Under the pieces are notes generated by a model. It was not told the origin of the DNA and did no database searches. It saw nothing but the letters and a program-made list of their open reading frames with translations. From contig OY776215.1 in NCBI GenBank assembly GCA_963675495.1, positions 1,120,001 to 1,184,000 on the forward strand: DNA of 64,000 bases. Direction: 5' to 3'. The position numbers and the translations under genes are program-made. The DNA comes from an uncultured Methanolobus sp. Its GTDB lineage: Archaea > Halobacteriota > Methanosarcinia > Methanosarcinales > Methanosarcinaceae. Below, piece by piece: positions 7,133 to 27,793 of this stretch. Within the stretch, counting starts at the first letter, position 1, and each line of letters starts with the position of its first letter.

Positions 7133-7206
7133 CATAAACTCTCTACTTTTCCATTTTGAAAGATTTCAAGCTAAAAACGTAATTAAATCTCAGTTAAAAC
7201 ACGGGA

Positions 7207-10368: not shown

Positions 10369-10953
10369 TTACTCTGAATGTATCTTCTTCAGTAACCATG
10401 CCATGTTGGAGGCGAGATTACCCATGGTTTGCATACCTTCAGCGTCATCTGCGACATCCCCGGGATTCAGACCGATACCAAGGTTCCAGTAAGTTGAACC
10501 CACGGTGAACATATTGGTGATGCCGAACAGTTGATTGATGGAATTATAGGCACGTACTGCACCTGCCCTGCGAACTGCTACCACAGCAGCGCCAGCCTTC
10601 CTTGAAAAGAAACTATCGTTTGCAAGCGATACGAAACCTGCACGGTCTATGAGTGCTTTGGTCTCGGTGTTGACATCTGCAAAGTAAGTTGGCGAACCAA
10701 TCACAATACCGTCAGCTTCCTTCATTTTTGCAATGCATTCATTGATGCCGTCGTCATCAAAAACACATTTGCTGTTCTTATTCTCAAAGCACTTCATACA
10801 TGCTGTACATCCATGTATCTTCTTTCCACCAATGTTAATGGTTTCAGTCTCAATCCCTTCTGCTTCGAGTTTGGATGTGAGTTCTTTCAGCATGATTGCT
10901 GTGTTTCCTTCTTTACGTGGGCTTCCGTTTATTGCGACTACTTTCATTTGCAT
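10369..10953 (-). CDS. Iron-sulfur flavoprotein (Isf) / flavodoxin-like protein
   Basis: INGSPRKEGNT, CTACMKC...C cluster motif, GSPTYF. Confidence 0.9.
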   Translation of the reverse strand: MQMKVVAINGSPRKEGNTAIMLKELTSKLEAEGIETETINIGGKKIHGCTACMKCFENKNSKCVFDDDGINECIAKMKEADGIVIGSPTYFADVNTETKALIDRAGFVSLANDSFFSRKAGAAVVAVRRAGAVRAYNSINQLFGITNMFTVGSTYWNLGIGLNPGDVADDAEGMQTMGNLASNMAWLLKKIHSE

Positions 10954-11045
10954 ACCTTCATTGTTTAAACAATACAGATCTAATGGATTGTCTTATATGA
11001 TTCAAAACACACTTAATGTACATATACCCCATACAGACCTACCAC

Positions 11046-11069
11046 ATAGTCACTAACAAAAAGTATACT
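11046..11069. repeat. 24-bp inverted repeat copy A (ATAGTCACTAACAAAAAGTATACT), probable HxlR-type operator
   Basis: Exact reverse complement of 14569-14592; embedded in ~100 bp of looser homology. Confidence 0.85.
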
Positions 11070-11218
11070 GTCGTGAGATCATGAAGGTTTTGCTGAAATT
11101 TGCTAAAACCTATGGCCTCAAATTTTATTAAAGAATGCTAATTTAAGACTGGAAACAAATTTGTATTGTCAACAATCTTTTGACGCACATATTTCATCAA
11201 AGAATAGACGGTGTGAAG

Positions 11219-13618
11219 TTAATCACACCTTGTCCAACCACATGCGGAACAACTTCTACATCCATCAATGCGCCTTATCTCTTCACCACATTCAGGACAA
11301 ACACCCTTCAATGGTGTCTGTATTTTAATTGGTTCCTGGGCACTCCCTGGTTTTTTGATTGCTTTTTCGGGTTTACCGGCAACCGAATCATTGGTCAGTG
11401 ATCTGATATAATTAGCCACGATCGAAGGACAGGACTTACCATCAGTATCACGGCCTTTACATGCATCACACTGGATCTTGCTCCAATGATGCGTAAGGCT
11501 TTTGATATTTGCTCTTCCCTGCAATGCAAGTGATACAGTGATCGCAAGTGCAGCAGAATGAGCTTTACAACCACCGCCGACAGTGGTCATGAACAGCTCC
11601 CAAAGGATTGCATCATTACCATCACCTATTGGATTCTCGAAGGATTTGCAATATAATTCACCACATCCGGTTCTGAACTTTGTCCTTCTACCGTTTACAG
11701 TTTCCTTTGGATGTAAGTCGATCTCTGTATTGTAATCCAACCTGAAGAGATTCACCCTCTGAAGAAGTTCACACTTCTCTTCAGGAGATAAACCTTCCAT
11801 TGCAAAAGAGAGTGTATCAGGATTCATGATATCGATCTGAGTAGGAGCGATATCTTCTTCAATATCAGCTTCTTCAAAATCAGTATCTCCGCATATTTCA
11901 AGGAGCTTTACATCGTCCTCGTCTGACTCTTTTGCAGCAACTATCACCTGGTCGTCCCTGGAGCCATCACGATAGACTGTGAGACCCTTACAGCCGAGTT
12001 TCCAGGCCATCATATATAAGTCCCCAATTTGCTCAGATTTAGCATCATATGGGAGATTTATGGTCTTTGAGACGGCATTGTCAACATGCTTCTGGACCGT
12101 AGCTTGCATTTTCACATGATCCTCAGGTGAAATATCGAAAGCTGTGATGAAGTATTCCTTCACGTGGTCCGGAACTCCATCCAGATCTCGCATCTTCAGA
12201 GATGGAGTTGTCCTGAGTATTTCCATCAGTCCTTCAGAATAGAACCCTTCTTCCTTTGCCACCTTCTCAAAGAGTGGATGGACTTGAATGAATTCGCTAT
12301 CAACGATCTTCCTCTTATACACAAAATTGAAGTTAGGCTCAATTCCAAATGATACACCAGCAAACGTTGCAAGTGTACCTGTAGGTGCAATCGTTGTGAT
12401 CTGACAATTTCTTGGTGTCGTCTGTGATGGAAAGCTTTCTTGCTGGAACTCAGGGAAGGTACCGAATTCACGGCCAAGCATATTTGATGTAGCCCAGCCT
12501 GCATCATCAATGAACTGCATGACCTTTCCAACCATTTCACGACCTTCATCACTGTCATAAGGTAATTTCATGTACAACAGCATATCTGCAAGTCCCATGA
12601 CACCTAATCCAATTGGTCTGGTCTTGTGTGCCATATCATGGATCCCAGGTAATGGGAAATGGTTCACATCGATGACCTTATCAAGGAATGTGACTGCAAT
12701 TTCAGTGATCTTCTTGAGGCGGTCAAAGTCAATTACATAGCGTCCATCTTCCGTAGGCGTCAGCATATTGACCAGGTTTATTGAACCGAGATTACATACA
12801 CCGAATGGAATGAAATAGAACTCACCACACGGATTCGATGATTTGATCGCACCGAGATGAGGAACAGGATTAGTGGAATTTACCGCATCGATGAATATCA
12901 TTCCGGGTTCCCCGGATTCCCAGGCATTCTCGCATATGATATCAAATATCTCACGGGCATCCGTAAGAACCACTTCATTATTATGGGGATTAACCAGTTC
13001 AAAATCATTACCATTCTCAACAGCATCCATGAAAACGTCAGACACGGCAACGGATAAATTGAAATTTGTCATCGTCTTGTCATTCTTCTTACAAAGGATG
13101 AAGTCAAGAATATCCGGATGGTCCACACGAAGAGTACCCATATTTGCGCCACGTCTCATACCGCCCTGTTTGACCTCTTCTGTAGTTGCATTGATGATCT
13201 TCATCCAACTAAGAGGTCCGGATGCAACACCATTTGTTGAGGATACCGGGGAGCCTTTTGGTCTGGTTGAAGAGAAGTCAAAACCTGTCCCCCCACCGCT
13301 TTTATGAACAATAGCAGTGTTTTTAACGGTCTCCATTATTTCGATCATATCATCTTCAACAGGTAATATGAAACATGCAGAAAGCTGTTGCCTGTCACCT
13401 TCTTTACCTGCATTTGCCAATGTAGGGGAATTTGGCAAGAAATCAAGGTTGTACATTACATCAAAGAAGTCATCTGCTAATTCTTTGTCACCATTTGATA
13501 TTACAGATGCGACTCTTTCACATAGTCCACTCCAATCCTCACCCTCATGGTAATACCTTTTACCGAGGATATCTTCAGCAATGGGGCTAAGTGTTTTGTG
13601 TTCCGTTGTTATTCCCAT
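11219..13618 (-). CDS. nrdJ: Class II (adenosylcobalamin-dependent) ribonucleotide reductase
   Basis: FLPNSPTLANAG, LSACF, GGGTG, RRGANM, NPCGE catalytic loop, CNLGSINL, TIAPTGT, SKTIN; C-terminal TSCPD-like region and CxxC...CSACGWTRC tail. Confidence 0.95.
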   Translation of the reverse strand: MGITTEHKTLSPIAEDILGKRYYHEGEDWSGLCERVASVISNGDKELADDFFDVMYNLDFLPNSPTLANAGKEGDRQQLSACFILPVEDDMIEIMETVKNTAIVHKSGGGTGFDFSSTRPKGSPVSSTNGVASGPLSWMKIINATTEEVKQGGMRRGANMGTLRVDHPDILDFILCKKNDKTMTNFNLSVAVSDVFMDAVENGNDFELVNPHNNEVVLTDAREIFDIICENAWESGEPGMIFIDAVNSTNPVPHLGAIKSSNPCGEFYFIPFGVCNLGSINLVNMLTPTEDGRYVIDFDRLKKITEIAVTFLDKVIDVNHFPLPGIHDMAHKTRPIGLGVMGLADMLLYMKLPYDSDEGREMVGKVMQFIDDAGWATSNMLGREFGTFPEFQQESFPSQTTPRNCQITTIAPTGTLATFAGVSFGIEPNFNFVYKRKIVDSEFIQVHPLFEKVAKEEGFYSEGLMEILRTTPSLKMRDLDGVPDHVKEYFITAFDISPEDHVKMQATVQKHVDNAVSKTINLPYDAKSEQIGDLYMMAWKLGCKGLTVYRDGSRDDQVIVAAKESDEDDVKLLEICGDTDFEEADIEEDIAPTQIDIMNPDTLSFAMEGLSPEEKCELLQRVNLFRLDYNTEIDLHPKETVNGRRTKFRTGCGELYCKSFENPIGDGNDAILWELFMTTVGGGCKAHSAALAITVSLALQGRANIKSLTHHWSKIQCDACKGRDTDGKSCPSIVANYIRSLTNDSVAGKPEKAIKKPGSAQEPIKIQTPLKGVCPECGEEIRRIDGCRSCSACGWTRCD

Positions 13619-14185
13619 AGTTTCACCTTATATTATTAAACGAAAAAGTTCATCATTTGTACTTTAACAATCACTCTTCAGCTTTGTAGATATCCTTAAT
13701 ATTCAGACTCAAATGTAAACTCACAATTATGCTAAAAGTACCATATGTTGGATAGAGTTACCAGTTTCAGCATTATAGGTACTTGTTTGAATAGGTTTTC
13801 TACGTAGCATTAAATATAAGTCACCATTCAAATGATGGCAGACCTATAATTTCTATTTCTATCCTTCAATCCCTGCTTTTTTGCCACGTTTCCAATTGAA
13901 CATTTCCTTTGATCATTCACTACCCTAAATTGAACTGGACAGGAAATTTCTTCATCTGGTTTCATGGGTTTTTATCATTGGACTATTCACACCACTTCAA
14001 GTACCTGTCGACTAACTTGTTCAATGAAAGTGTAAACATTTAACCTAACGTTGTTAATTTCATTTAGCTCACACTTGATCATTACTCGAAAAAAGTTAAA
14101 CGGACAAAGTAAGAGAACATGAGGATTGTGGAGAATTTATTATCTATTTAAGATTGCAAAAAATTGAATTATCAAATGTAATGTT

Positions 14186-14557
14186 TTATTCCTCCTGCCC
14201 AAGCGTACACTGTCTTCCCAGATATTCACTACCCCAGTCACAAAGTGCTTCAAGTATAGGAGTAACGGTCTTACCAAATTCTGTTAAAGAATATTCGACC
14301 TTCGGAGGAATCTCCGGATACATCCTCCGGTTTACAAGGCCATCCTCTTCGAGCTCCCTTAGCTGTTTTGTCAGCATTCTTGGAGAAACACCATGGAGGT
14401 TCTGCTGTAGTTTATTATAGCGTATGATCTCAAGTTCTTTTAGTTGCCAGAGGATCAAAGGTTTCCATTTTCCTCCGATAACATCAAGTGTCGCTTCCAC
14501 AGGGCAATGATATTCTTTGTTATTCCTTATGTTGATCAGTTTTTCGTCGTTTCCCAT
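14186..14557 (-). CDS. HxlR-family winged-helix transcription regulator
   Basis: CPVEATLDVIGGKWK...LTKQLRELEEDGLV.R..YPEIPPKVEYSLT. Confidence 0.92.
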   Translation of the reverse strand: MGNDEKLINIRNNKEYHCPVEATLDVIGGKWKPLILWQLKELEIIRYNKLQQNLHGVSPRMLTKQLRELEEDGLVNRRMYPEIPPKVEYSLTEFGKTVTPILEALCDWGSEYLGRQCTLGQEE

Positions 14558-14568
14558 AATCTCACTCG

Positions 14569-14592
14569 AGTATACTTTTTGTTAGTGACTAT
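14569..14592. repeat. 24-bp inverted repeat copy B upstream of hxlR
   Basis: AGTATACTTTTTGTTAGTGACTAT, exact reverse complement of 11046-11069. Confidence 0.85.
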
Positions 14593-14898
14593 ATATTAAG
14601 TCTGTATAAATCATATGTGCATTAAGTGTATCTTGATATTATATAAGGCAATTCATTGAATTTATATGATTTAAAGCCAGGAAGATATTAACATGAATTC
14701 ACAATAACTCCCTCCTTTTGTGGATTAAAATCCGGGACTCGGTATCTTCAATTAAGCGCTGACAACTTTCAATAGAACAGGATGCTTAGTTGTTGTTAAT
14801 TATAGTTTATACGGCAACACTTTGGATTAAAAACCTGCAATCTAGATCACTGGTTTCTCACTGTAAACAATATCCTTAAATACCTGTTTTTGCTTTAT

Positions 14899-14931
14899 TG
14901 TTGTTGTGACAACAGTTGTCTCTACAACTGT
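14899..14931. promoter_or_regulatory. Tandem palindromic operator upstream of marR-1 (GTTGT-N4-ACAAC x2)
   Basis: TGTTGT-TGTG-ACAACA overlapping ACAGTTGT-CTCT-ACAACTGT, between a TATA-like CTTAAATA and the start codon. Confidence 0.7.
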
Positions 14932-14951
14932 AAGATATAAAGGTGCAACAT

Positions 14952-15422
14952 ATGAAAGATATACCCCTCGGAGCATTCATTGCAATAACCTATCGAAGTA
15001 ATTTTGTAAAAATAAACAACAAAATGAAAGAACTCGGTCTTTCTGCAGGTCAATTTTTCGTACTTCATGTCCTTTCTCATGAACAGGGTTTAACTCAGGA
15101 TGCACTTGCATGGAATCTTCTCATTGATAAAGGAAGCATTGCCAGGGCAGTCAACGTCCTTGAAGAAAAAGGCTATGTCAAACGTATCACAGATGAGAAT
15201 AATCGCCGTGCTGTACGTCTTTATTTCACAGATCAAGGAAAAGAGCTCATCCCTAAAATTCTCATAATTGACCGGGAACTGGAAGAAGGTACATTGTCAC
15301 TACTCACAGAAGAAGAGAAGGCGCAGGCAAGGGTACTACTCTGCAAAATGGCACAGGGTAGCTATGAATCTGCCTATGAGAATGATGAGAAACGGAAGGA
15401 ATTCCCACTGAAAAAGCAGTAA
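14952..15422 (+). CDS. MarR-family transcription regulator (paralogue 1)
   Basis: GLSAGQF...LTQDAL...DKGSIARAVNVLEEKGYVKR..D..NRR...L..T..G; ATG after AAGGTG. Confidence 0.9.
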   Translation: MKDIPLGAFIAITYRSNFVKINNKMKELGLSAGQFFVLHVLSHEQGLTQDALAWNLLIDKGSIARAVNVLEEKGYVKRITDENNRRAVRLYFTDQGKELIPKILIIDRELEEGTLSLLTEEEKAQARVLLCKMAQGSYESAYENDEKRKEFPLKKQ

Positions 15423-15469
15423 CAAAAAAGTAGAAATAAAGTTCAGATTAAAGATAGGAGATTTAATAC

Positions 15470-16735
15470 ATGAAAAATCAGGCTACAAACAACCCTATTT
15501 CAGGCAATGGATTAGCATTACCTATCCTGCTGGCTGCTTCTATGATCACTCTTATGGGAGGGGCAGCAGTTGCACCTGCACTTCCGAAGATGGCTCAATA
15601 TTTCAGCAATATAGAGAATGCTGAATACCTCCTGGCATTTATGATAACCCTGCCCTCTCTTGCAATCGCTTTGAGTTCTCCATTCATGGGAATTATTGCA
15701 GATAAATACGGAAAAAAGAAATTACTCATATTTTCCCTTCTGCTTTTCAGTCTCTCAGGGGTTACCGGAGCTTATTTTGAATCACTTGAATCTATTCTTG
15801 TGGGACGGTTTGTTCTTGGGATAGCGATCGCAGGAATAATGATCTGTGCAACCGCATTGATCACTGATTATTATGCCGATCCTGCTAAAAGACAGAAGAT
15901 TTATGGAATGCAAGCTGCAGCCATGGGTTTTGGTGGTTTGATACTAGAAACCGGAGGTGGAGGACTTGCTGAATTTAGCTGGCGTTATCCATTCTTTATC
16001 TATTTGATCGCTTTGCCGATAATGTTCGGTGCATTTTCCTTACTGGAACCTGCAAAACATCAAACACAGCTAAATAAAAATGAAACCACAAACACAAAAA
16101 GTGAATTGAAGATAGGAGCTATAGCCTTTGTCTATCTTTTAATGTTCATTACAATAACACTTATGTTTACCGTACCTTCAAAAGGACCATTCCTCTTTTT
16201 TGAAAGTGGTATTACTTCCAGTCTCATAACAGGTGTTCTTCTCGGTCTCATGGGAATGGCCAGTATGGGAGCTGCTCTTTGTCAGGTTAAAATATCAAAA
16301 TATCTGGATGAACTGATGCGCTGTGCTTTAGGTATTGGGTCTACAGGCCTTGGTTTATTCTTAATGGCAAATGGCAGTATGGCCACTATTGTTGCAGGCG
16401 TTGTCTTTGTCGGAATAGGAATGGGCGTTAGCCAACCTACTTTGACCCATTGGATCGGTCTGCTTTCACCTCAGCACCTGCGTGGAAGGATCTTTGGTGG
16501 ACTTACTTCAATAATATTCATCGCTCAATTCGTATCTCCAATACTCATGCAACCTTTACTTGAAAACGGTCTGTCACTTGCCAGCGCGTTTAAATATCTT
16601 GGCATAGCAGGACTTGCTATTGGAGTTATTGTAGTTGCAGGAAGGATAGTAATAGGACAGAGCAAAAATATTACTATGGGATTGGATACAAGTGTTGCCC
16701 ATTTAGAAAATGCGGTTTACGATGAGGATGACTAA
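15470..16735 (+). CDS. MFS transporter (drug:H+ antiporter-like)
   Basis: 12 TM; motif A GIIADKYGKK, GRFVLG, WRYPF, LRGR.FG. Confidence 0.9.
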   Translation: MKNQATNNPISGNGLALPILLAASMITLMGGAAVAPALPKMAQYFSNIENAEYLLAFMITLPSLAIALSSPFMGIIADKYGKKKLLIFSLLLFSLSGVTGAYFESLESILVGRFVLGIAIAGIMICATALITDYYADPAKRQKIYGMQAAAMGFGGLILETGGGGLAEFSWRYPFFIYLIALPIMFGAFSLLEPAKHQTQLNKNETTNTKSELKIGAIAFVYLLMFITITLMFTVPSKGPFLFFESGITSSLITGVLLGLMGMASMGAALCQVKISKYLDELMRCALGIGSTGLGLFLMANGSMATIVAGVVFVGIGMGVSQPTLTHWIGLLSPQHLRGRIFGGLTSIIFIAQFVSPILMQPLLENGLSLASAFKYLGIAGLAIGVIVVAGRIVIGQSKNITMGLDTSVAHLENAVYDEDD

Positions 16736-16899
16736 TCCTCATTTTACTTTCCCATCTCCGTCTCTTATTTTTTCAATATTGTAATACGTTCTAGTATAAT
16801 TACACTTAAGCTCAGGCACCTTATTTTTATTGCTTCCTTTTTGTAACAAATCCACGATTTCTTATTCCCATCAATATATTTAAATACCAGATCGCATAT

Positions 16900-16930
16900 T
16901 GTTGACAAATCAACAGTTGACATGTCAACT
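16900..16930. promoter_or_regulatory. Tandem palindromic operator upstream of marR-2 (GTTGA-N4-TCAAC x2)
   Basis: TGTTGA-CAAA-TCAACA overlapping the perfect palindrome AGTTGACATGTCAACT, downstream of TATA-like TTTAAATA. Confidence 0.7.
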
Positions 16931-16948
16931 AATTGTATGGAGAATAAA

Positions 16949-17476
16949 ATGGACGATATACCCATCGGAGCATTAATTTCAATGACCTATCGCAGTAACT
17001 ACGTGCGAGTAAACAACAAAATGAAAGAACTTGGGCTTGCTGGTGGTCAGTTCTCTGTGCTCATGGTGCTTTCACACAATCAAGGCGTTACACAGGACAC
17101 ACTTTCCTGGATGCTTCTCTTAGATAAAGGAAGTATTGCCCGTACAGTCAGGGTCCTTGAAGAGAAGGGATTTATTAAGCGCATTCCCGATGAAAATGAC
17201 CGTCGTGCTGTCCAGATTTATCTCACGGAAAAAGGAGAGCAGATCATCCCGGAAATTCTCAAAATTGACAGGGAACTGGAAGAAACTACTTTTTCAGGCT
17301 TCACAAATGAAGAAAAATCACAGGCAAAAGCACATTTTCTCAGAATAGCACAGAACAGTTACGAAGCTGCTTATGATAAAAATGACAAGAAATGGAAGGA
17401 ATGCCCACTGAAAAGCTGCGACAAAGTATCAAATGTAGTATTGAAGGGAACTGAAAAAGAACTGGAAGAGGATTGA
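16949..17476 (+). CDS. MarR-family transcription regulator (paralogue 2)
   Basis: Closely similar to 14952-15422 (DIP.GA.I..TYRSN...NNKMKELGL..GQF, DKGSIAR); ATG after GGAGA. Confidence 0.9.
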   Translation: MDDIPIGALISMTYRSNYVRVNNKMKELGLAGGQFSVLMVLSHNQGVTQDTLSWMLLLDKGSIARTVRVLEEKGFIKRIPDENDRRAVQIYLTEKGEQIIPEILKIDRELEETTFSGFTNEEKSQAKAHFLRIAQNSYEAAYDKNDKKWKECPLKSCDKVSNVVLKGTEKELEED

Positions 17477-18867
17477 TAATCATGGATAATAAAAACATGG
17501 ATCTTGGGAATGATAAGATCTCAACTATTTTCTGGAAATATGCCATTCCCTCAATAGCTTCAATGCTGATCATGGCAGCTTATTTTGTGGCTGATGGTAT
17601 CATTGTTGCCAGAGGAGTTGGCAGTACCGCCCTGGCTGCTGTAAACCTGTCCATACCACTGATGATGGGAACAAACGCAGTTATCCTGGCACTTTCCCTG
17701 GGTGCATCAATAATTATTTCTATCCTGCTGGCCCAGAAGAAATACAAAGATGCCAGCAACGTTTTTTCAGTGGTATTTGTCACAACCACTGTAATCGCAA
17801 TTATATTTTCAGCAACTGGTCTTTATTTCCTTGATGAACTATCCTATGCAATAGGAGCCACTGAAGAGATCCACGGAATGGTGCAGACATACCTTTCAGT
17901 TATCCTGTATTTCATTATCTTCTTCTGCTTGCAGATCACACTATCAAATGCTATAAGGAACGATGGGAACCCGAACCTTGCACTGCTCAGTACCCTTGGT
18001 GGAAGTTTACTGAACATACCTCTTGATGCTTTCTTTGTCTTCGTGCTTCACTGGGGACTCTTCGGAGCAGCAATAGCAACCGGGATGTCACAACTTATAG
18101 GTGCAGCAGTCCTGTTCACTCACTTCCTTCGAAAACAGGGACATCTGCGTTTTGTAGTGCCTCATTTCGATCTGCGGATCATGAAAAGGATAGTACACAA
18201 TGCTTTTCCACTATTCATTGAAACCATTTCAATATCAATCTTCTTTACCACTATGAACATCCTGGCTGCTAAATACTACGGAACTACCGGAGTAGCTGCT
18301 TTTGCAATAGTAGGCGCTGTTTCAATGATATCAGCAATGTTCTTTGTCGGGATAGCACAAACAAATCAGCCTTTGATAAGTTATAATTACGGTCATGGAA
18401 AACATAGCAGAATACATGATATTGTAAAATATTCACTGAAAACAACAACTGTACTCAGTATTGCAGCAGTCACCATAGTTGCAATATTCAGCGAACAGCT
18501 GGTTGGCCTGTATGTAAATGTATCTGCAGAACCCGAGCTTGTTTCATTGACAAGCCTCGCACTCAGGATCTATGCTGTCGGTTACATATTTACAGCAATA
18601 AACATGGCACTGGTAAAATATTTCCAATCCACAGAAGACCGCAGATCATCTTTACTAATAACATCCCTGAGATCTTTTGTTCTTCTTATCCCTGCTGCAT
18701 TGATAGTTCCAAAAATATTTGGAGGAATAGGAATCTGGATGGTGATACCCTCTGTGGAATTATTCATTGCCGTTCTATCCGGTTTTATTTACTGGAGATC
18801 ATTTTCTGCAAAAAATATGGAGGTTATCAAAACCCCACATTACGATCTTGATGAATCAAGAAAGTAG
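17473..18867 (+). CDS. MATE family efflux transporter (MepA-like)
   Basis: KYAIPSI, DGIIVARGVGSTALAAVN, IRNDGNP, NIPLD, GLFGAAIAT, QPLISYNYG. Confidence 0.92.
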   Translation: MIIMDNKNMDLGNDKISTIFWKYAIPSIASMLIMAAYFVADGIIVARGVGSTALAAVNLSIPLMMGTNAVILALSLGASIIISILLAQKKYKDASNVFSVVFVTTTVIAIIFSATGLYFLDELSYAIGATEEIHGMVQTYLSVILYFIIFFCLQITLSNAIRNDGNPNLALLSTLGGSLLNIPLDAFFVFVLHWGLFGAAIATGMSQLIGAAVLFTHFLRKQGHLRFVVPHFDLRIMKRIVHNAFPLFIETISISIFFTTMNILAAKYYGTTGVAAFAIVGAVSMISAMFFVGIAQTNQPLISYNYGHGKHSRIHDIVKYSLKTTTVLSIAAVTIVAIFSEQLVGLYVNVSAEPELVSLTSLALRIYAVGYIFTAINMALVKYFQSTEDRRSSLLITSLRSFVLLIPAALIVPKIFGGIGIWMVIPSVELFIAVLSGFIYWRSFSAKNMEVIKTPHYDLDESRK

Positions 18868-18894
18868 AGAAAAAATGAAATTAATTTTTTGGTA

Positions 18895-18925
18895 CACAAT
18901 CTTGATGAATATATCAGGATTGTGC
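18895..18925. terminator. Hairpin between convergent MATE and hxlR genes
   Basis: CACAATCTTGAT...ATCAGGATTGTG imperfect inverted repeat flanked by A/T tracts. Confidence 0.45.
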
Positions 18926-19044
18926 AATTCATTTTATTAATTGATTCTACTAAGCTAGAATCTAATATAAATTATGAAATAGGAATTGTAGATGTTTTCT
19001 ACTAAGAAATATAATAATGTGAGATAAGTGTTGAACTCGCAACA

Positions 19045-19380
19045 TCAGGAATCATGCCATTTCTTACTCCATTCTGCCATTGAACGCAAAACACCTGCCA
19101 AGTCACTACCTTTTTCCGTAAGATGATATTCAACCTTGACTGGTGTTGTAGATACAACTTTTTTCTCGATTACTTCGTAAGTGACCAGATCTTTGAGTTT
19201 AGATGAGAGAGTTTTTGAGCTTATAGGCTTCAGGGAATTTAGCAGAGCGTTGAACCTCATTGGCCCACCTGACAAGTAAAACTCCCTTATCAATAGTATG
19301 CCCCACTTGCTCCCTATCAATGTAACTGTTTTTTCAATGGGACATGGTATATCCCTTAAATCTTCTGGATATTGAAACAT
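19045..19380 (-). CDS. HxlR-family transcription regulator
   Basis: CPIEKTVTLIGSKW...RFNAL...ISSKTLSSKLKDL...PVKVEYHLT. Confidence 0.9.
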   Translation of the reverse strand: MFQYPEDLRDIPCPIEKTVTLIGSKWGILLIREFYLSGGPMRFNALLNSLKPISSKTLSSKLKDLVTYEVIEKKVVSTTPVKVEYHLTEKGSDLAGVLRSMAEWSKKWHDS

Positions 19381-19478
19381 TTCAGATTACCTCCAGGTAA
19401 CTTGATTTCTGCAGTGAAAGTTTTGGGTTATATAGTTTACTTTCATTACTAGATTTACTTAATAAAGTGGTGAAACCA

Positions 19479-20405
19479 ATGAGAAACAGAGTTATAATGA
19501 TATTAGTATTTTGTGCAATTTTGCTGTCAGGTTGTGTTGACAATCCTAATCAGGAAAATGCTGCTGAATCGCTTGAAGCAAGAAACGAAGAAATACAAAT
19601 TGATGATGTAAACAAGATAACTGAAACAGAAGAGTATACCGGAGCTATCTACGTCAATGAGGTCAATGGAGCAACTATCCATACATACGTGAGTTACACC
19701 GGAGATGCATCAAACCTGATCGAAACCAACGATGCTTTGATCCTTTTAGATGCGCAGTCAACCCATTCATCTTCAGTAGAACTTACAAATTACATCGGAA
19801 CACTGAATAAGCCTCTGAAACAGGTTTTAGTTCCCTCACATGGACTGGGACTTGCATACTATGAAGGAACACCCGCAAGCGCAAGTGAGCAAATGAACTC
19901 TTTCATGGAGAGCGGTGGAGCAGAGGTTTTTGTAGACATATTCAAAGGTGTATTTGGAGAAGATCTGGATGACCGAATAGTTCTCATTAATTCCACCCTG
20001 AAAGAAGGCGAGAACACGATCGAAGGAGTTAAATTCACTATGAATACCCACGAGAATGATTTCCCTCCTGTAAGTGATCTTGAGTTTACGCAATACAATG
20101 TACTCTTCACCCACCTCACTGCAGATGATACACATATGCTGGTTAATAGCAGAGATCAAATCAATGAGCTGAAGGATTACTGGACAAATGCACAAAGCAA
20201 GAATTATGAACTCATTCTCTCATCCCACCTGATGCCTGTGGATGCCAGAGCAATAGAATTCCAGCTTCAATATCTGGACGTTCTGGAAAATGCTTCACAA
20301 AGTGCGAGTCAGGAAGAGTTCATGGAAGCAATGCAAACTGCTTACCCTGATGCAGGGATGCAGCAATTCCTTGGAATGACTGCCAATAATTTCTACGCTC
20401 AGTAA
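19479..20405 (+). CDS. Lipoprotein with degenerate metallo-beta-lactamase-like fold
   Basis: Signal peptide with lipobox LSG-C; LIET..ALILLDAQ, VLVPSHG, LILSSH resemble eroded MBL motifs; divergent from hxlR. Confidence 0.6.
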   Translation: MRNRVIMILVFCAILLSGCVDNPNQENAAESLEARNEEIQIDDVNKITETEEYTGAIYVNEVNGATIHTYVSYTGDASNLIETNDALILLDAQSTHSSSVELTNYIGTLNKPLKQVLVPSHGLGLAYYEGTPASASEQMNSFMESGGAEVFVDIFKGVFGEDLDDRIVLINSTLKEGENTIEGVKFTMNTHENDFPPVSDLEFTQYNVLFTHLTADDTHMLVNSRDQINELKDYWTNAQSKNYELILSSHLMPVDARAIEFQLQYLDVLENASQSASQEEFMEAMQTAYPDAGMQQFLGMTANNFYAQ

Positions 20406-20427
20406 GGAATATATATCAAGTATCAAA

Positions 20428-20452
20428 GATAAGTTTTCATGAAGAACTTATC
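20428..20452 (+). terminator. Hairpin downstream of the lipoprotein gene
   Basis: GATAAGTT-TTCATGAAG-AACTTATC inverted repeat. Confidence 0.45.
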
Positions 20453-20462
20453 CTATTCAATT

Positions 20463-20635
20463 TTAACAATAAATATTATGATGTGATGAAATGGAAGATC
20501 CACTGGAATTTTTGAGAAATATTAAATCCGTATCTATTGCAACTGTTAACAATAAATATTATGATGTGATGAAATGGAAGATCCACTGGAATTTTTGAGA
20601 AATATTAAATCCGTATCTATTGCAACTGTTAACAA
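20463..20635 (+). repeat. Exact 83-bp tandem duplication of the 5' end of the downstream gene
   Basis: Units start at 20463 and 20546; TTAACAA occurs at 20463, 20546 and 20629 (microhomology at the junctions). Confidence 0.92.
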
Positions 20636-21173
20636 CAACGTACCGGAAGTTCGGATAGTTGATGTAATGCTGCATGAGGATGATAAGTTATACTTTTTGA
20701 CGGCAAGGGGAAAACCATACTACAAGCAATTAAAAGCTAATCCCGAAATATCCATTGTCGTCATGGATGAGAATTATATCACTGTAAGAGTTAAGGGGAA
20801 AATAGAGTTTGTTGATAGAAGTTTCCTAGATAAGATGTTTGATGCGAATCCGGTTATGAATCACATATATCCGAGAGATACAAGGGAAATTCTGGAAGCA
20901 TTTTGCCTCCCAAAAGGTGTCGGTGAGGTTTTTGACCTCTCTACAAATACCCCAACGCGTGAAAGATTCGCATTTGGAGGAGAAACTCCGATCGAGCCGG
21001 GATACAGAGTCAATGACAATTGTATTGCCTGTGGCATGTGCAAGGATTCGTGTCCCACCGGAGCTATGACTGAAGGTGATGTTTACAGCATAGATAGTGC
21101 ACTTTGTCTTGAATGTGGCAATTGCTATGAAAAATGTCCTAACGATGCAATCGAAGAACCCCTTGAATTTTAA
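20574..21173 (+). CDS. Pyridoxamine 5'-phosphate oxidase-like (FMN split-barrel) domain fused to 2x[4Fe-4S] ferredoxin
   Basis: IATV...PEVR, LYFLTARGKPYYKQLKANP; CIACGMCKDSCP and CLECGNCYEKCP. Confidence 0.88.
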   Translation: MEDPLEFLRNIKSVSIATVNNNVPEVRIVDVMLHEDDKLYFLTARGKPYYKQLKANPEISIVVMDENYITVRVKGKIEFVDRSFLDKMFDANPVMNHIYPRDTREILEAFCLPKGVGEVFDLSTNTPTRERFAFGGETPIEPGYRVNDNCIACGMCKDSCPTGAMTEGDVYSIDSALCLECGNCYEKCPNDAIEEPLEF

Positions 21174-21200
21174 ATTTCAGACCGGAAAGGAGTGGGGATA

Positions 21201-21584
21201 ATGGAACAAAATTTAGAACAAAACAAGAATAATGCAATTGCATTCTACAAGATGGCTTATGAAGGAAATCCCAGAAAGGCAACTGAACTATACGTAGGCA
21301 AAGAATACATTCAGCACAATCCATTGGTGGATGATGGAACTGAAGCATTCATCGAATATTTTGAAAGGATGCACGCTGACTACCCCGAGAAAAGCATCGA
21401 GTTTGTCAGAGCCGTAGCAGAAGGCAATCTGGTTGCCCTGCACACACATCAAATATGGCCAGATAACGAAGAATATGTTACAATAGACTTTTTCAGATTT
21501 GACGATAATGGGAAAATAGTCGAGCACTGGGACAGCATACAAATGATCCCCGAAGAATCTGCGAATGATAACGACATGTTCTAA
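21201..21584 (+). CDS. SnoaL-like / NTF2-fold protein
   Basis: YIQHNP, AEGNLV..H, DFFRFDDNGKIVEHWD; ATG at 21201. Confidence 0.88.
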   Translation: MEQNLEQNKNNAIAFYKMAYEGNPRKATELYVGKEYIQHNPLVDDGTEAFIEYFERMHADYPEKSIEFVRAVAEGNLVALHTHQIWPDNEEYVTIDFFRFDDNGKIVEHWDSIQMIPEESANDNDMF

Positions 21585-21616
21585 GATACGGGTGGATGTT
21601 GATTGGGTTTTTTTAG

Positions 21617-21833
21617 AAAAGGAAAACTATTGGTTTTAGTGAGTCTGCTTATTTAGTTAAAAGGCAGGTTCTGAGGATGTTAAGCAGACGATATTGAGCA
21701 TATCTTATACTGAGTGGAAGAAAATGGGATTCTCAAAAGGCACATTGCATTATATGAAAAAAATGATGAAGCGGATAAGCCTTTTACTTTAAACTCTCAT
21801 GTTAGAGCAAGATTGGAGATGTGGGAGTGTTGA
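21617..21833 (+). pseudogene. cas1: Relic 3' end of a casposase (casposon Cas1-solo) gene, two frameshifts
   Basis: Manual translation across two single-base frameshifts gives KRKTIGFSESAYLVKRQ/SEDVKQTILSISYTEWKKMGFSKGTLHYMKK/DEADKPFTLNSHVRARLEMWEC*, matching my recall of the C-terminal HTH of Methanosarcinaceae casposases (...ILxISYxxWKKxGFSKGTLHYMKxNAxxDKPFTLNxHV...). Confidence 0.8.
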
Positions 21834-21927
21834 ATTTTTAACAATTATTAGATGCGCATAACTATTTATTTTAACAGAATCTTAATTATTATGAAAAATT
21901 TATGATTCTTTCATCAATATAACATAT

Positions 21928-22971
21928 TTGTATTTAGAGGTAAAATTGAAAAACTTAATCAAACCATGTATCACTAAAAGTGATAAAGATTATAACAATA
22001 ACATAGTAGCTTTATACAATCGATTAAGTTTAGTTGTGATAATATGTGCTACATTAGTTGCATTGTTTTTACTAATAACTGCCATTTCATATAGAGATAT
22101 AATTATTGATTTTTTATCATTTTTTGAACAAGCAGATGTTATAAAAGTATATTTAAAAACTCAGTATGATTCTTTTTCATTAGAAAACATTGCTTCAATA
22201 ACTGCGGGACTTTTTTTGTACTTTTACTTTTTTGAATATATTAAAAAATCGAATATTTATTCATTTTTAGATTCAACAAAAGAAAGCAAATACTTTCAAT
22301 TTTTGTTTTCGCTCTTTGCATTCTTCAATTACACATTAGTCATATTTATTGTACTTTATTTGATTTTTGTAAAAAAGTCATATCTTGAAACTTTTGTTTT
22401 AGTTAGTTTATGGATAATTACAAAGTATATATTTATTGATCTTCTTCTTATCTACAAAAATATATTGTTCAATTATAATTCACTAATACAATTCAACTCA
22501 AAACAAAAATATTATACAAATTTGAAAATAAGAAAAGCATGCCAAGATATTATAAATGATGGTGGAATAAATTTTGAATTAAAAGATTTTATAACAAAAA
22601 ATAAAAATCAAATTTCTGATTACACAATGAAATTTATAATTTCATTCGTTTTCAGTCGCAAAAATCTATTATTGAAATCGGTGCTTTTTATTAGCATATT
22701 TACAGGCATACTAACTATAGTTTTTGAATTTAATATTTTATCTATAATTTATTTACAATTACATTTCATATTGTGGTATTTTGTTTTGAGTGCCACTTTT
22801 GGAGTACCAACTACATTACAAAATATCCACTTAATAAATGGGGAGAATATTTCTAATGTGTATATAGTTGAAAAATCCCCAAGTGGACATACTATAACTT
22901 TAGATTCACAAAACCGTACAAAAAAAGTGATGAACTCTTCTATACTTTTCATCGAAAACAAAACAAACTAG
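21928..22971 (+). CDS. Very AT-rich hypothetical multi-pass membrane protein (casposon cargo candidate)
   Basis: 347-aa open frame with ~6 hydrophobic segments; composition far more AT-rich than neighbouring genes; start uncertain. Confidence 0.6.
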   Translation: MYLEVKLKNLIKPCITKSDKDYNNNIVALYNRLSLVVIICATLVALFLLITAISYRDIIIDFLSFFEQADVIKVYLKTQYDSFSLENIASITAGLFLYFYFFEYIKKSNIYSFLDSTKESKYFQFLFSLFAFFNYTLVIFIVLYLIFVKKSYLETFVLVSLWIITKYIFIDLLLIYKNILFNYNSLIQFNSKQKYYTNLKIRKACQDIINDGGINFELKDFITKNKNQISDYTMKFIISFVFSRKNLLLKSVLFISIFTGILTIVFEFNILSIIYLQLHFILWYFVLSATFGVPTTLQNIHLINGENISNVYIVEKSPSGHTITLDSQNRTKKVMNSSILFIENKTN

Positions 22972-23076
22972 TTGTTCATTGTGTCTACAAACACATACCC
23001 TTCTCGGAAGTATAAAAAGTATTCTTGAAAATATAGCGTACACTTTTTTCGCCTTGTATATATCCCAAAATACTAA

Positions 23077-23142
23077 TGCGACAGGTTTAATTCGAGCACT
23101 ATAGACCTTAGGAAAACAAACATAACACCCCTATAACCTAGC
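23077..23142 (-). pseudogene. Decayed third copy of tRNA-Leu
   Basis: TGCGACAGGTTTAATTCGAGCAC matches tRNA TGCGGGAGGTGTGATTCGAACAC at 18/23 nt; CCCTATAACCTAGC resembles the anticodon arm CCCTCAACCTAGC; same 158-bp spacing as the two intact copies. Confidence 0.6.
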
Positions 23143-23231
23143 TGAGTAAAAACCTCATAAAAAATATAACAAAAATACCAGCACAAACCGAAAAAGTAGC
23201 CACTGATCAAACAATTAACATAAAAAGAGTT

Positions 23232-23319
23232 TGGTGCGGGAGGTGTGATTCGAACACACGAACTCCTACGAGACTAGGCCCTCAACCTAGCGCCTTTGGC
23301 CTGGCTGGGCAACCCCCGC
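23232..23319 (-). tRNA. tRNA-Leu(GAG), copy 2
   Basis: Reverse complement GCGGGGGTTGCCCAGCCAGGCCAAAGGCGCTAGGTTGAGGGCCTAG...GTGTGTTCGAATCACACCTCCCGCACCA; anticodon GAG, long variable arm, encoded CCA. Confidence 0.95.
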
Positions 23320-23389
23320 ATAAGATTTGCTGATGGAATTGTCGATTTAAATGGAAGAACATTCACTGAAGATATACTGTTAAAGAGTT

Positions 23390-23477
23390 TGGTGCGGGAG
23401 GTGTGATTCGAACACACGAACTCCTACGAGACTAGGCCCTCAACCTAGCGCCTTTGGCCTGGCTGGGCAACCCCCGC
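23390..23477 (-). tRNA. tRNA-Leu(GAG), copy 1 (directly after rpoD)
   Basis: Identical to 23232-23319. Confidence 0.95.
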
Positions 23478-23528
23478 ATCATGAAGGACATACTATAAAG
23501 ATAAGGAGAGAAAATCTCCTAAACCAAT

Positions 23529-24323
23529 TCAGAGAGACTCTAAAATCTGCCCCAACTGGCTGGCTTTCTTTTTAATAGTTGTTCCTGCATTTATAATTAA
23601 CTGTTGAACTGTGTATGAACCATCAGATTCCATAGTGAAAATGAAAGATCTTTCATCTTCGGACACAGTAATGGCATCAATTTCACAAGCTAATTCACAT
23701 TGTTTACAGAGTATGCATTTCAGATTATCGTCGCCAGTTATTTCTGCACCGTTTGGACCAAGATGAATAATGTCTTTTGGACATTCACTCACACATGCGC
23801 CACATTCGTCACAGTTCTCGAACTTAACGACTGGCATATTCTTGTAGCCACATGCCACACCAGCCTGCCATTTTGCATGATCGTAGCCATAGCCCATATG
23901 GGCGATCGCTTCAAGCACCACTTTCTGACCTTCCTTCAGATCAATGATAGGAATGTTTTGATCAGCAGCCTGAACTGTTTCATCAGATGACACAAGGTCA
24001 CCTGAATATACCATTTTCGGACCTTCTGCACTGAGAGTCAGAGATACCTTGCATGCAGGGCATTCTGAACCGCAGGTACACTCTTCAACAGGTACGAACT
24101 CCCCAATGTCTGTTGTCAAAGGAATAAGGCCAAGCCTTAAAGCTAATTGTTCGTCAAAGAGGACTGAAGTATTGTTGTAAATGTTTACATCATCTATAGC
24201 AAGAGTTGGTACATCAGAGAGCGATGCTCTCCTTATACCGTTAGCAAGAGCTGCACTTGCATCAGACAATATAAACTTTGCAGACCTCTCAGACAGCTCA
24301 AGTATGTCTACTTCCATTGTCAT
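23529..24323 (-). CDS. rpoD: DNA-directed RNA polymerase subunit D (Rpo3) with ferredoxin-like 2x[4Fe-4S] insert
   Basis: ANGIRR...VPTLAID, RLGLIPL, HAKWQ; CDECGACVSECP and CILCKQCELAC. Confidence 0.95.
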   Translation of the reverse strand: MTMEVDILELSERSAKFILSDASAALANGIRRASLSDVPTLAIDDVNIYNNTSVLFDEQLALRLGLIPLTTDIGEFVPVEECTCGSECPACKVSLTLSAEGPKMVYSGDLVSSDETVQAADQNIPIIDLKEGQKVVLEAIAHMGYGYDHAKWQAGVACGYKNMPVVKFENCDECGACVSECPKDIIHLGPNGAEITGDDNLKCILCKQCELACEIDAITVSEDERSFIFTMESDGSYTVQQLIINAGTTIKKKASQLGQILESL

Positions 24324-24345
24324 GAGTTCATATCCATTTATTGTT

Positions 24346-24732
<387 letters not shown>

Positions 24733-25293
24733 TTACTCCTCCTTTCCTACAACTGCTGAAGCAATCTGTGCTGGCCTTTCAGGATGTGATTCGCCAGTAA
24801 GTGGTGAATTGCCATAGTAGTCGATATTCATCTCTTCAGTATGAGAGATAAGCATGCCAGGAATCGTTACCTTCTGACCACCTATTGCAATGTGACCGTG
24901 TGTAATGAACTGCCTTGCCTGTCTAGGAGTTCTTGCAAGACCAAGCCTGTATACCTGAGTCTGCAACCTGCGCTCCAGAATCGTTTCAGTTTCAAGTGCA
25001 AGAATATCATCAATATTTGCATCAGCTGAAAGGATTGAATATCTCCTGAGTCTTGCGAGGATCTGGTCTGATTCAGTCTTAAGATGACCTGCAAGTTCTG
25101 TTTCCGCAGATTCTGCGAGAATTCTACGAGCATCTCCTCTGTATCTTCTAAGAATACTGACTGCCTTCCAAAGTTCCTTCTTGTTACGGAGACCGTATTT
25201 TTTAAGGAGTTCTACTTCAGTAGCCATCCTGGCTGCCTGCCAAGGATGTTGTGGAGTATCGTAACTCTTTCTTTTTTTACCTGGATATCCCAT
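24733..25293 (-). CDS. rps4: 30S ribosomal protein S4 (uS4)
   Basis: [27 protein letters not shown]. Confidence 0.97.
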
Positions 25294-25306
25294 GAGATCA
25301 CCTTAT

Positions 25307-25753
25307 TTACTTCTTCTTGCTTACGCCAATGGTTGAGCCACGTCTTCCTGTGGACTTTGTTCTCTGACCTCTGACCTTAAGACCTCTTTCGTGCCTCAGA
25401 CCACGGTATGCTCTGACCTTCTTCAAGTTGTTTATGTCTTCTCTAAAGGTCATCATTATGTCCTGGCCCAAATGGTGTTTGTTTTCACCAGAAAGTGGGT
25501 CTGCACATCTGTTAAGCATCCAGGTTGGGATGTTCTTTTCGAAATCAGCGATAGCTGCATCGAGCTTTGCAACGTCTTCATCAGGAAGATAACCGATAAT
25601 TCCTTTCGGATTAACTCCTGTGCTTTCGACTATAATCTTTGAGGTTCTAAGCCCAATACCGCGAATACCTGTCAGCGCATACATTACAGGCTGACTACCC
25701 TGAAGGTCAGTATTCATGATACGGACTAAATGTCTTATTTCTTCATCTGCCAT
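25307..25753 (-). CDS. rps13: 30S ribosomal protein S13 (uS13); start corrected to MADEE
   Basis: [27 protein letters not shown]; AAGGAGG RBS before ATG at 25753. Confidence 0.97.
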
Positions 25754-25767
25754 TATTTTTTCCTCCT

Positions 25768-25830
25768 TAGGGACGCAAAGCGTCCTGTAGCCTCGAAACA
25801 AAGTTTCGACACACCCTGTAAAGGGCTAGG
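25768..25830 (-). promoter_or_regulatory. Structured 5' leader of the rps13 operon (candidate r-leader)
   Basis: Hairpins CCT-TTAC-AGG, TCGAAAC-TTT-GTTTCGA (both enclosed by TAGC/GCTA) and GGACGC-TTT-GCGTCC just before the RBS. Confidence 0.5.
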
Positions 25831-26103
25831 CAATTCTAAAGATTAATAGAATAATTTACCAGCATATACTATTTTTTTATTTGCACAATCCATGCAACAG
25901 AAAATAGCAATACAAGTGAACTCATCCTATAGACTAATTACATAAATACTTTCCTGTGAATTGAATTCAAAGACCATACATCAAAATCCCGCATCATGCC
26001 CTGAGATCAATGCAAATGCCTTTTTCGAGTAATTGTTTATAAAAAGACAAAACCACCATTCATGGTCAAAGCCTTCGTACTTTTACCTCTGTATAAATAG
26101 CAA

Positions 26104-26385
26104 TTATTTGAAAATCTCGCCAAGTCCCTTTTCCAGATCTTTGAGCATTTCTTTTTCCACATAATCAGCTATTTTTTTAGTTGTCGCTTTAGATGGATGC
26201 ACCTGATCCAAACTAGCGCCACAAAGAGGACATATTATGCATTCACCAAGCACCAGACCCTCATCAACGATATTGGAAAATACCACATTGATTTCGCTCT
26301 CACACTCGGGACATGTCACTAACGCGCTTCCATCGTCCTTTACATCCATATTTGATTTCAGATTGAATACTTTTTGATCATCCAT
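26104..26385 (-). CDS. Small zinc-ribbon hypothetical protein
   Basis: CPEC...CPLC pair; probable start MDDQK after AGGTGA RBS. Confidence 0.6.
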   Translation of the reverse strand: MDDQKVFNLKSNMDVKDDGSALVTCPECESEINVVFSNIVDEGLVLGECIICPLCGASLDQVHPSKATTKKIADYVEKEMLKDLEKGLGEIFK

Positions 26386-26685
26386 CGTATCACCTTGTTC
26401 ACACACCCAGAAAAGAGTTTCTCAGGCTATTCCATCCATATTGTTGTGACTCAATTGATATAGCTACTTGAAAAAATCTTTGCAAATTTAGTCCATTGCA
26501 AAACATAAATTGAATAAAAATAATTACACCTTTTCTTTTTAGAATGACGTGTATCGCAAAGTCATTGCCAAGCATTAGTGAGCTTTGGCTGCAATTGTAC
26601 AAGACCCATAAATCGCACCTCGATCAATCCACACATATTTGGAATGAAACTTAGATCATAGTAATTAAAAATCAAAAAAGAATTA

Positions 26686-26771
26686 TGGCGCCGAGAGGGG
26701 GATTCGAACTCCCGAGGGGCTATGCCCCACAAGCTTTCCAGGCTTGCGCCCTACCGCTAGACTATCTCGGC
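26686..26771 (-). tRNA. tRNA-Ser(GGA)
   Basis: Reverse complement GCCGAGATAGTCTAGCGGTAGGGCGCAAGCCTGGAAAGCTTG...GGGAGTTCGAATCCCCCTCTCGGCGCCA; anticodon GGA, long variable arm. Confidence 0.95.
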
Positions 26772-26779
26772 ACATGTGG

Positions 26780-27793
26780 TTATTTTGGCTTGCTGTGCCA
26801 ACCTTGCGGATAAGAGCCAGCATCCATTATTACTCTTTCGGTCGTAGCCACGATTCCATGCTCATTTTCAAGCATTTCCCCAGTATCCATAAGTGCAGTA
26901 CATAATGCCACCGCCTCCCCTTTTAAAGTGAAAAGACAAATATCATCACCTTTGTTGATATTTTTGTCAAGGCTTGATATACCAGGTGCTGCAATTGCCG
27001 CACCTCGACATACTGCGTCCACTGCACTATCGCGAATGATAACTTTAGGAAGATGCGCTAAACCTTCCTCCATAGGTCTGATAACCTGCCGTAAGAATGA
27101 TTCATCACCATCTTCCTGCAAGAAAACATAAGCATCTTTCAATTCATGGAGGGTTACCAACGTATCCTCCCTGAAAGGACCAGTCTTTGTCCTGCGAAGT
27201 TCCTGCATATGAGCACCACAGCCCAATGCAACACCAATGTCATGACATAACTTACGCATATAAGTACCAGCCTCACAGCCAACCCTCATGAGTACTGATT
27301 TCTCTCTTACATCAAGAACCTCAAGATAGTAGATCTTCCTCACACGGACCGCACGCTTAACAGCAGAGATGATTGGTGGCATCTGAAATATAGGTCCTGT
27401 AAATTGTTTACAAACTCTAAGGACCTTCCTCTCAGGGACATCTTCATGTAAAGTCATCAGGCAGATGTACTCCTTACCCGATAAACGAAGAGCAGCAACT
27501 GTCTTAGTAGCTTTGCCGAGCATAATCGGAAGTACACCGGTCACAATAGGATCAAGTGAACCGGAATGTCCGGCTTTTTTTAGCTCAAGGATATCCTTGA
27601 CCCAGGCTGTAACTTCATGACTTGTAGGACCTACTGGCTTGTCAAGATTGACAACACCCATCTCAATGTGCTGCCTGATAGGTCGGTCGTAAGGAGAACA
27701 GCCATAGAAAGGACTGGTTTTCGCTTCTGCCTTAAGCACTAATTCACGTTTATATTCCGAAGGTAAGATACCAGAATTCATATAACCCGCCAA
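26780..27793 (-). CDS. cbf5: H/ACA pseudouridine synthase Cbf5 (TruB family); start possibly 27781
   Basis: LDKPVGPTSHEV, GHSGSLDP, CEAGTYMRKLC, C-terminal PUA domain. Confidence 0.95.
   Translation of the reverse strand: MAGYMNSGILPSEYKRELVLKAEAKTSPFYGCSPYDRPIRQHIEMGVVNLDKPVGPTSHEVTAWVKDILELKKAGHSGSLDPIVTGVLPIMLGKATKTVAALRLSGKEYICLMTLHEDVPERKVLRVCKQFTGPIFQMPPIISAVKRAVRVRKIYYLEVLDVREKSVLMRVGCEAGTYMRKLCHDIGVALGCGAHMQELRRTKTGPFREDTLVTLHELKDAYVFLQEDGDESFLRQVIRPMEEGLAHLPKVIIRDSAVDAVCRGAAIAAPGISSLDKNINKGDDICLFTLKGEAVALCTALMDTGEMLENEHGIVATTERVIMDAGSYPQGWHSKPK

Follow-up and report, generated by a model that had tools for sequence, protein, structure and literature searches.

Casposons are self-replicating transposons related to the origin of CRISPR. 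The question raised by the present locus is whether a short sequence lying beside a tRNA-Leu-like stretch of Methanolobus DNA is the end of such an element and, if so, how much of the element is left. An earlier sequence-only reading of the window (the whole stretch that was analysed, 64,000 nucleotides) had placed here a casposon terminal inverted repeat (TIR) ending at 23066, a candidate 14-bp duplication of the target site (TSD) next to it and a casposase relic approximately 1.2 kb upstream. Taken together, the analysis described below indicates with high confidence that window positions 21590–23066 represent the rightmost 1.5 kb of a family-2 casposon that has since decayed, with a perfect 31-nt TIR, one 14-bp copy of the target, an orphan ORF and a stub of the casposase remaining.

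Terminal inverted repeat, target copy and tRNA-Leu pseudogene

The right-end TIR of 31 nt lies on the minus strand at 23036..23066 with the sequence GGGATATATACAAGGCGAAAAAAGTGTACGC, and its earlier placement was found to be correct to the base. On the plus strand of the window, positions 23036–23066 read GCGTACACTTTTTTCGCCTTGTATATATCCC, followed by AAAATACTAATGCG (23067–23080) and then ACAGGTTTAATTCGAGCAC. The TIR begins with GGGATATA and has the 3′ terminus ...TATATCCC, as in the published casposon ends of M. mazei and Methanosarcina, and the plus strand ends at 23066 in the form given for an integrated casposon end, 5′-TATATCCC (Hickman et al., 2020, Fig. 5 legend, PMC6977970). The family-2 TIRs given in the supplement of PMC4779613 are GGGATATAGGTAACTCAAAAAAACGCAACGC for M. 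mazei and GGGATATAGGTATCTTCAAAAAAGTGTACGC... for the Methanosarcina sp. 2.H.T strains, the latter in tRNA-Leu. Published TIRs of this family start with GGG(G)ATATA, as had also been stated in the sequence-only reading, and contain a run of A6 followed by GTGTACGC or CGCAACGC (PMC4779613). By hand count, the window TIR is identical to that of Met2HT1A15-C1 at 23 of 31 positions and to the 31-nt TIR of M. mazei at 21 of 31. It shares its first 8 nt and the A-run with both, and its last 8 nt only with the 2.H.T TIR.

The 31-mer occurs once in the window (with a match in 0 of 100 shuffles) and, allowing up to 3 mismatches, once in the single-contig genome of 2,874,008 bp (2.87 Mb). Across 36 genomes of the genus, 41 occurrences were detected at up to 3 mismatches, distributed over 22 genomes, and a control with the reversed pattern gave 0 matches in all 36. 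Seven of the copies, from 5 genomes, are exact and include both ends of an intact element in the congener G010, referred to here as casposon X. A chance origin of the match is excluded by the uniqueness of the 31-mer in window and genome, its 41 copies in the genus, the empty reversed control and the seven exact copies. As the 31-mer is the same as the TIR of a working-looking casposon, the resemblance is one of identity and not a loose motif match. The nearest TIRs are specific to the genus (31/31) and not of the M. mazei type.

Adjoining the TIR is the 14-bp target-site copy (23067..23080; CGCATTAGTATTTT on the minus strand), the sole surviving copy of the presumed TSD. It is made up of CGCA followed by ten AT-rich bases and in this matches the published target rule: the TSDs of M. 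mazei family-2 casposons are given as 14 bp in length with an invariant CGCA start and an AT-rich end (PMC4779613), and the first 4 bp of the TSD are the last 4 bp of the tRNA-Leu (Hickman et al., PMC6977970). The TSD of about 14 bp and the insertion at the 3′ end of tRNA-Leu given for M. mazei in the sequence-only reading agree with both sources. The 14-mer is identical at 11 of 14 positions to a published TSD, CGCATTAAGATTAT (PMC4779613 supplement).

A survey was made of the flanks of 30 distinct TIR copies of the window type (29 from congeners plus that of the window) among the matches listed, 41 in all. At the far end of the 14-mer, CGCA was present in 14 of these 30 copies and TGCG, as expected of the other end of an element, in six, while three were one mismatch off and seven were without fit. 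Exact CGCA or TGCG precisely 14 nt from the TIR was thus seen in 20 of the 30 copies among the matches listed; the frequency expected by chance is estimated at ~0.8%. Beyond the 14-mer, the surveyed flanks among the matches listed continued into the 3′ end of a tRNA or into an adjacent casposon, whose end reads ...CCTATATCCC.

A second copy of the 14-mer was sought in the whole genome, as had been suggested, and none was found at up to 1 mismatch. Within the window there was only a match with 2 mismatches at 9411, which is within chance expectation. The TSD candidate has the right length, CGCA motif and position. With only one end surviving, neither a duplication nor the pairing of inverted repeats can be demonstrated at this locus, and the 14-mer is a target-site copy.

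The CGCA had been described as the end of a tRNA-Leu-like sequence on the minus strand, and this description was supported and refined by alignment. The minus strand of 23067–23200 was aligned to all 50 tRNAs called by ARAGORN in the genome. The best four local alignments were all to tRNA-Leu, the top one being tRNA-Leu(TAG) with a score of 37 over tRNA positions 3–85. Controls fell short of this, with at most 32 for 300 shuffles and at most 35 for 300 GC-matched genomic 94-mers. The orthologous sequence in the sister species (G001) is less decayed, with a score of 54 and its five best matches all to tRNA-Leu. Since neither ARAGORN nor the Rfam tRNA model made a call at 23077–23158, the pseudogene is accepted on the alignment statistics. 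Judged by these, the CGCA ends a decayed but full-length tRNA-Leu pseudogene (~23077..23158, minus strand), whose 3′ CGCA forms the first 4 nt of the target copy, and not either of the functional tRNA-Leu(GAG) genes. These lie on the minus strand at 23232..23319 and 23390..23477, the first of them 74 bp from the pseudogene; they are identical, form a 98-nt direct repeat and were called by both ARAGORN and the Rfam tRNA model. Insertion at the 3′ end of a tRNA-Leu with CGCA as its last 4 nt, a character of family-2 casposons, is found here, and G010 shows the same geometry at functional tRNA-Leu genes, as does the source genome at three of its tRNA-Leu genes.

The 3′ ends of tRNAs are also the classic attachment sites of other integrating elements. 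The locus might accordingly be read as the attachment-site scar of a tyrosine-integrase element, located at a tRNA fragment and resembling a casposon TIR by chance, and in M. mazei elements of this kind use the same tRNA-Leu site as casposons (PMC4779613). Against this, the pseudogene is full-length and not a 3′ partial copy, no integrase was found among the ORFs of at least 100 aa in window positions 9000–26800, and the 31-mer matches both TIRs of an intact casposon at 31 of 31 positions with no reversed-control match in 36 genomes. Such a scar is contradicted by the exact TIR identity and is considered highly improbable.

Casposase fragment, orphan ORF and intact casposons of a congener

Upstream of the TIR, a pseudogene fragment of a casposase (Cas1-solo) is located at 21609..21833 on the plus strand, representing the last ~77 codons with the C-terminal HTH region and containing two 1-nt deletions and in-frame stops. 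When translated, 21661–21762 matches residues 363–392 of PDB 6opm_A (E 1.8e-11), with 25 of 30 residues identical by hand count; this entry was deposited as Cas1 and is taken here to be the structure of the M. mazei casposase. A crystal structure of that enzyme has been reported (PMC6977970). The reading frame shifts in an A-run following this match and then reaches a stop at 21833, and the two 1-nt deletions were seen when 21609–21833 was aligned at the nucleotide level to the 3′-terminal part of a congener's intact casposase gene. Many casposases of the genus have 3′ ends that are 72–82% identical to the stub in nucleotide sequence. The stub ends 1,203 bp upstream of the TIR, which confirms the relic suspected at about 1.2 kb. 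It suffices to show descent from a Cas1-family casposase with a C-terminal HTH, though not a functional member of that family.

The left edge of the relic could be set by comparison with a casposon-free PNPOx/SnoaL locus in another congener (G016). Homology of this locus to the window stops at 21589 and casposase homology starts at 21609, thus placing the junction between host DNA (the end of a SnoaL-like gene region) and the truncated casposase within 21590..21608. It should also be noted that a perfect tandem duplication of 83 nt in two copies (20463–20628) covers the start codon region of the PNPOx-ferredoxin gene (20574–21173). The 83-nt unit is apparently single-copy in G001 and G016, as judged from overlapping BLAST HSPs.

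Between the stub and the TIR lies an orphan ORF of 347 aa (21928..22971, plus strand) with a GC content of 24% and many hydrophobic stretches, occupying the slot of variable content that separates casposase from TIR. Neither Pfam nor PADLOC placed it in a family, and the ESM Atlas gave nothing usable; one homologue was found among 5.8 billion proteins, with 53% identity and without gaps over 339 aa. For the ~1.1 kb between stub and TIR, this ORF included, no homologue was present in the fetched casposon loci. The position of the ORF suggests that it may be casposon cargo.

The relic was compared with casposon X of G010 (G010:C1:424490-433471), an element of 8,982 bp whose inverted ends both match the window TIR at 31 of 31 positions. 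A copy of CGCATCATTTACCT stands on either side of it, tRNA-Leu(TAG) lies with its 3′ end directly against the left end, and the element encodes PolB and a Cas1 of 400 aa (casposase gene at 425419-426621; PF01867, E 1.5e-69). A second element, casposon Y (433486-442004), follows in tandem with another type of TIR and the same 14-bp TSD. In both elements the casposase is transcribed toward a TIR lying ~0.9–1.05 kb past its stop codon, with a variable, unrelated gene in between. Casposon X and the relic are alike in their identical 31-nt TIR, in a target of CGCA plus ten bases at a tRNA-Leu, and in a casposase running toward the TIR with a variable gene between them. They differ in that casposon X is complete, with Cas1, PolB, two TIRs and two TSDs, and in that its slot gene is unrelated to the ORF of the relic. 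The earlier suggestion that the window holds the preserved right end of a casposon is well borne out by these observations, the 31-mer being that of both ends of an intact element and a casposase stub lying upstream of it. The 3′ end of the casposon X casposase has 72% identity to the stub and that of casposon Y 82%, while the window TIR is of the X type. The stub, being nearer to Y, and the TIR may on this evidence derive from different elements.

Missing parts and probable history of the locus

A search of the genome with PF01867 (Cas1) gave no match, the best E value being 1.79. A tblastn search with the 28 ORFs of casposons X and Y gave no PolB match within the window and only fragments in the genome. 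No left TIR was present in the window at up to 3 mismatches, and six TIR variants searched at up to 9 mismatches gave none in the 23 kb to the left of the relic. The inverted partner TIR, a search for which had also been suggested, was equally absent from the genome, where the 31-mer is unique at up to 3 mismatches. Family-2 casposons have TIRs at both ends and a family B DNA polymerase inside the element; at this locus there is one TIR and no such polymerase. The identity of each part described above and the absence of its partners are direct observations. With a single end and no casposase in the genome, the relic is inert, a dead and one-ended element. The perfect TIR, together with an intact ORF having one conserved homologue, could also suggest a non-autonomous, MITE-like mini-casposon that is mobilisable in trans. 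Such an element is contradicted by the missing second end, given the lack of an inverted partner TIR both in the window and over the 23 kb leftward, of a second TSD and of a casposase in the genome, and can be regarded as most improbable.

For the decayed family-2 casposon preferred here, we infer the following chemistry of integration and order of events. The casposase of the element would have inserted it where a tRNA-Leu gene has its 3′ end. By analogy with the enzyme of M. mazei, the 3′-OH of the terminal ...TATATCCC would have attacked both strands of the target 14 bp apart, with the CGCA at the tRNA terminus as anchor, and repair of the gaps would have duplicated the 14 bp. A later deletion probably took away all that lay left of casposase codon ~322, namely the left TIR, the left TSD, PolB and most of Cas1, with the break fused to the 3′ flank of the host SnoaL-like gene. 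The remaining tail of the casposase would then have gathered frameshifts and stops, and the target tRNA-Leu copy would have decayed to a pseudogene. In vivo work on M. mazei found that casposon excision leaves a clean single target without footprints (PMC10359463); the relic is thus read as a product of deletion and not of excision.

Ten orthologous loci in congeners (L004–L005, L007–L014) were examined. At seven of these, no more than ~200 nt separate the end of a conserved gene (the homologue of window 7141–8109) from the tRNA-Leu(GAG) pair, and no pseudogene or TIR was found in those seven loci. Because these two landmarks are adjacent there, the ~15 kb at window ~8110–23231 is lineage-specific and the side of the tRNA-Leu pair is a variable island. 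In G010, a TIR stub had been suspected by eye in the interval from the conserved gene to the tRNA-Leu(GAG) genes, but the scan gave it no support. Further repeats were observed in this part of the window. An inverted repeat of 82 nt, 80% complementary (11002–11083 and 14555–14636), brackets a class II ribonucleotide reductase-like gene (11219–13618) and a HxlR-type regulator (14186–14557). A direct repeat of 300 nt (74%; 14952–15251 and 16949–17248) corresponds to MarR-type regulators that are paralogues and each precede a transporter (MFS and MATE), the MarR, MFS and MATE names having been read from translations.

A match to the pseudogene region was obtained in just one of the other 35 genomes of the genus, that of the sister species G001. 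The site is occupied there, so that no true empty site, for which a search had been proposed, was found among the congeners. G001 has the same left break, with casposase residues ~328–351 and homology up to window position 21675, and on the right side homology resumes at 23062. Between these breakpoints G001 contains 8.6 kb of other DNA (positions 2949–11563 of L015, G001:C1:2303000-2317000), which includes a C-terminal fragment of PolB, several DDE transposase ORFs (IS-type), an archaeal ATPase/DUF234 gene and a DUF2111 gene. The TIR at the G001 junction is GGGATCTGGGTAACTGTAAAACACCGAACTT, beside TGCGCTAGTATTTT. It is of a different type, with 7 mismatches to the nearest of the six tested variants and 16/31 identity to the window TIR by hand count. 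The X-type TIR of the source genome and the other-type TIR of G001 stand at orthologous positions, each directly beside the same TAGTATTTT target. On the simplest reading, the truncated relic would be older than the divergence of the two species; in the G001 line this target would then have received a second casposon, with further deletion afterwards. It is possible, though put forward only tentatively, that the pseudogene has been a persistent landing pad for at least two casposon lineages, which, taken with the other relics of the source genome and the TIRs at three of its four other tRNA-Leu loci, would make this lineage a record of repeated targeted integration and then purging.

The G001 locus also bears on another origin of the window relic, namely a composite left by a tandem array. 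The stub would come from one casposon and the ORF and TIR from a second that later entered the shared TSD, an internal deletion having fused the two. In the genus, casposons commonly stand in tandem with a 14-bp TSD shared between them (casposons X and Y of G010; L021 and L027), many surveyed flanks end in ...CCTATATCCC, and the stub is closer to the Y-type casposase (82%, as opposed to 72% for the X type) while the TIR is exactly of the X type. The same left break and right junction with another TIR type and a different 8.6-kb interior in G001 are likewise in its favour. However, no internal remnant of a TIR or TSD was found in 21834–23035, the 1.2 kb from stub to TIR is near the 0.9–1.05 kb of single intact elements, and the types of TIR and casposase may simply be reshuffled from one casposon to another. 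A composite origin is judged unlikely.

The source genome itself holds ~10 other casposon relics, the Cas1 domain being absent genome-wide. A scan with the six TIR variants detected 10 TIR-like sites at up to 7 mismatches and 0 in the reversed-genome control. Such sites lie directly at tRNA-Leu(TAA), tRNA-Leu(CAA) and tRNA-Leu(TAG) and not at tRNA-Leu(CAG), so that TIRs adjoin three of the four other tRNA-Leu loci. Fragments of casposase or PolB were located at ~126–133 kb, 150 kb, 317–319 kb, 403–409 kb, 789 kb and 2,647 kb. When TIRs, casposase and PolB fragments are considered together, relics occur on the contig (G000:C1) at ~126–159, 317–321, 402–409, 787–790, 896, 2024 and 2647–2649 kb, several of them adjoining short T-loop-like TTCRAAT motifs that are not annotated as tRNAs. 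Downstream of tRNA-Leu(TAG), G000:C1:2340016-2340085 consists of CGCACTTGTTTTTA, a 16-nt TIR stub GGGATATAGGTAACGT, AGCACTTGTTTTTT and another TIR, a repeat-stub-repeat arrangement left by tandem casposons. The tRNAs of the source genome also include tRNA-Pyl.

Relation to known casposons and significance

The closest known systems are the family-2 casposons of Methanosarcina, namely MetMaz1FA1A3-C2, MetMazS6-C2 and Met2HT1A15-C1 (PMC4779613; PMC6977970). On the features reported for these, the relic is similar in a TIR starting with GGGATATA, with the A6 run and ending in GTGTACGC, in a 14-bp target that begins with the CGCA of the tRNA and has an AT-rich 3′ part, and in the C-terminal HTH region of its casposase. 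Unlike them, it retains only the right 1.5 kb, without PolB, the Cas1 catalytic domain, the left TIR or the second TSD, and the tRNA at its target has decayed to a pseudogene. There is also a difference in the 9 nt at the centre of the TIR, with TACAAGGCG in the relic and GGTATCTTC in the Methanosarcina type. The locus has a casposon TIR beside a CGCA target without a complete element, as do the solo-TIRs described from M. mazei, where a single TIR stands beside a CGCA-type target and the element is lost (Krupovic et al., 2016, PMC4779613). It differs from these in that its TIR is still joined to a casposase stub and a cargo ORF, which argues for a one-sided deletion and not for reduction to a bare TIR. 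The degraded casposons of Methanococcoides burtonii are similar in being inactive family-2 elements of Methanosarcinales with fragmented core genes. They are described without TIRs or TSDs (PMC4779613), whereas in the present relic the TIR is perfect and a copy of the target survives, but the core genes are lost.

No description of this locus was found in literature searches on casposons of Methanosarcina mazei and tRNA-Leu or of Methanolobus. The relic is a new example of a described class, that of solo-TIRs and degraded casposons, with a genus-specific subtype of TIR. As an ordinary fossil of a known kind, it leaves the current understanding of casposons unchanged. It does provide a well-delimited case of casposon death, in which a one-sided deletion has left a TIR, a target and a casposase stub, and its context, with ~10 further relics, intact tandem arrays in congeners and the TIR of the sister species, is useful with regard to the reuse of targets and the fate of TIR and TSD remnants. 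If the pseudogene did serve as a landing pad for successive casposons, the record would include TSD-TIR-stub-TSD arrangements, which are of the kind proposed as precursors of CRISPR repeats. The rules established for Methanosarcina casposons, namely the start of the TIR, the 14-bp CGCA target and the 3′ end of tRNA-Leu as the site of insertion, hold in another genus of the Methanosarcinales.
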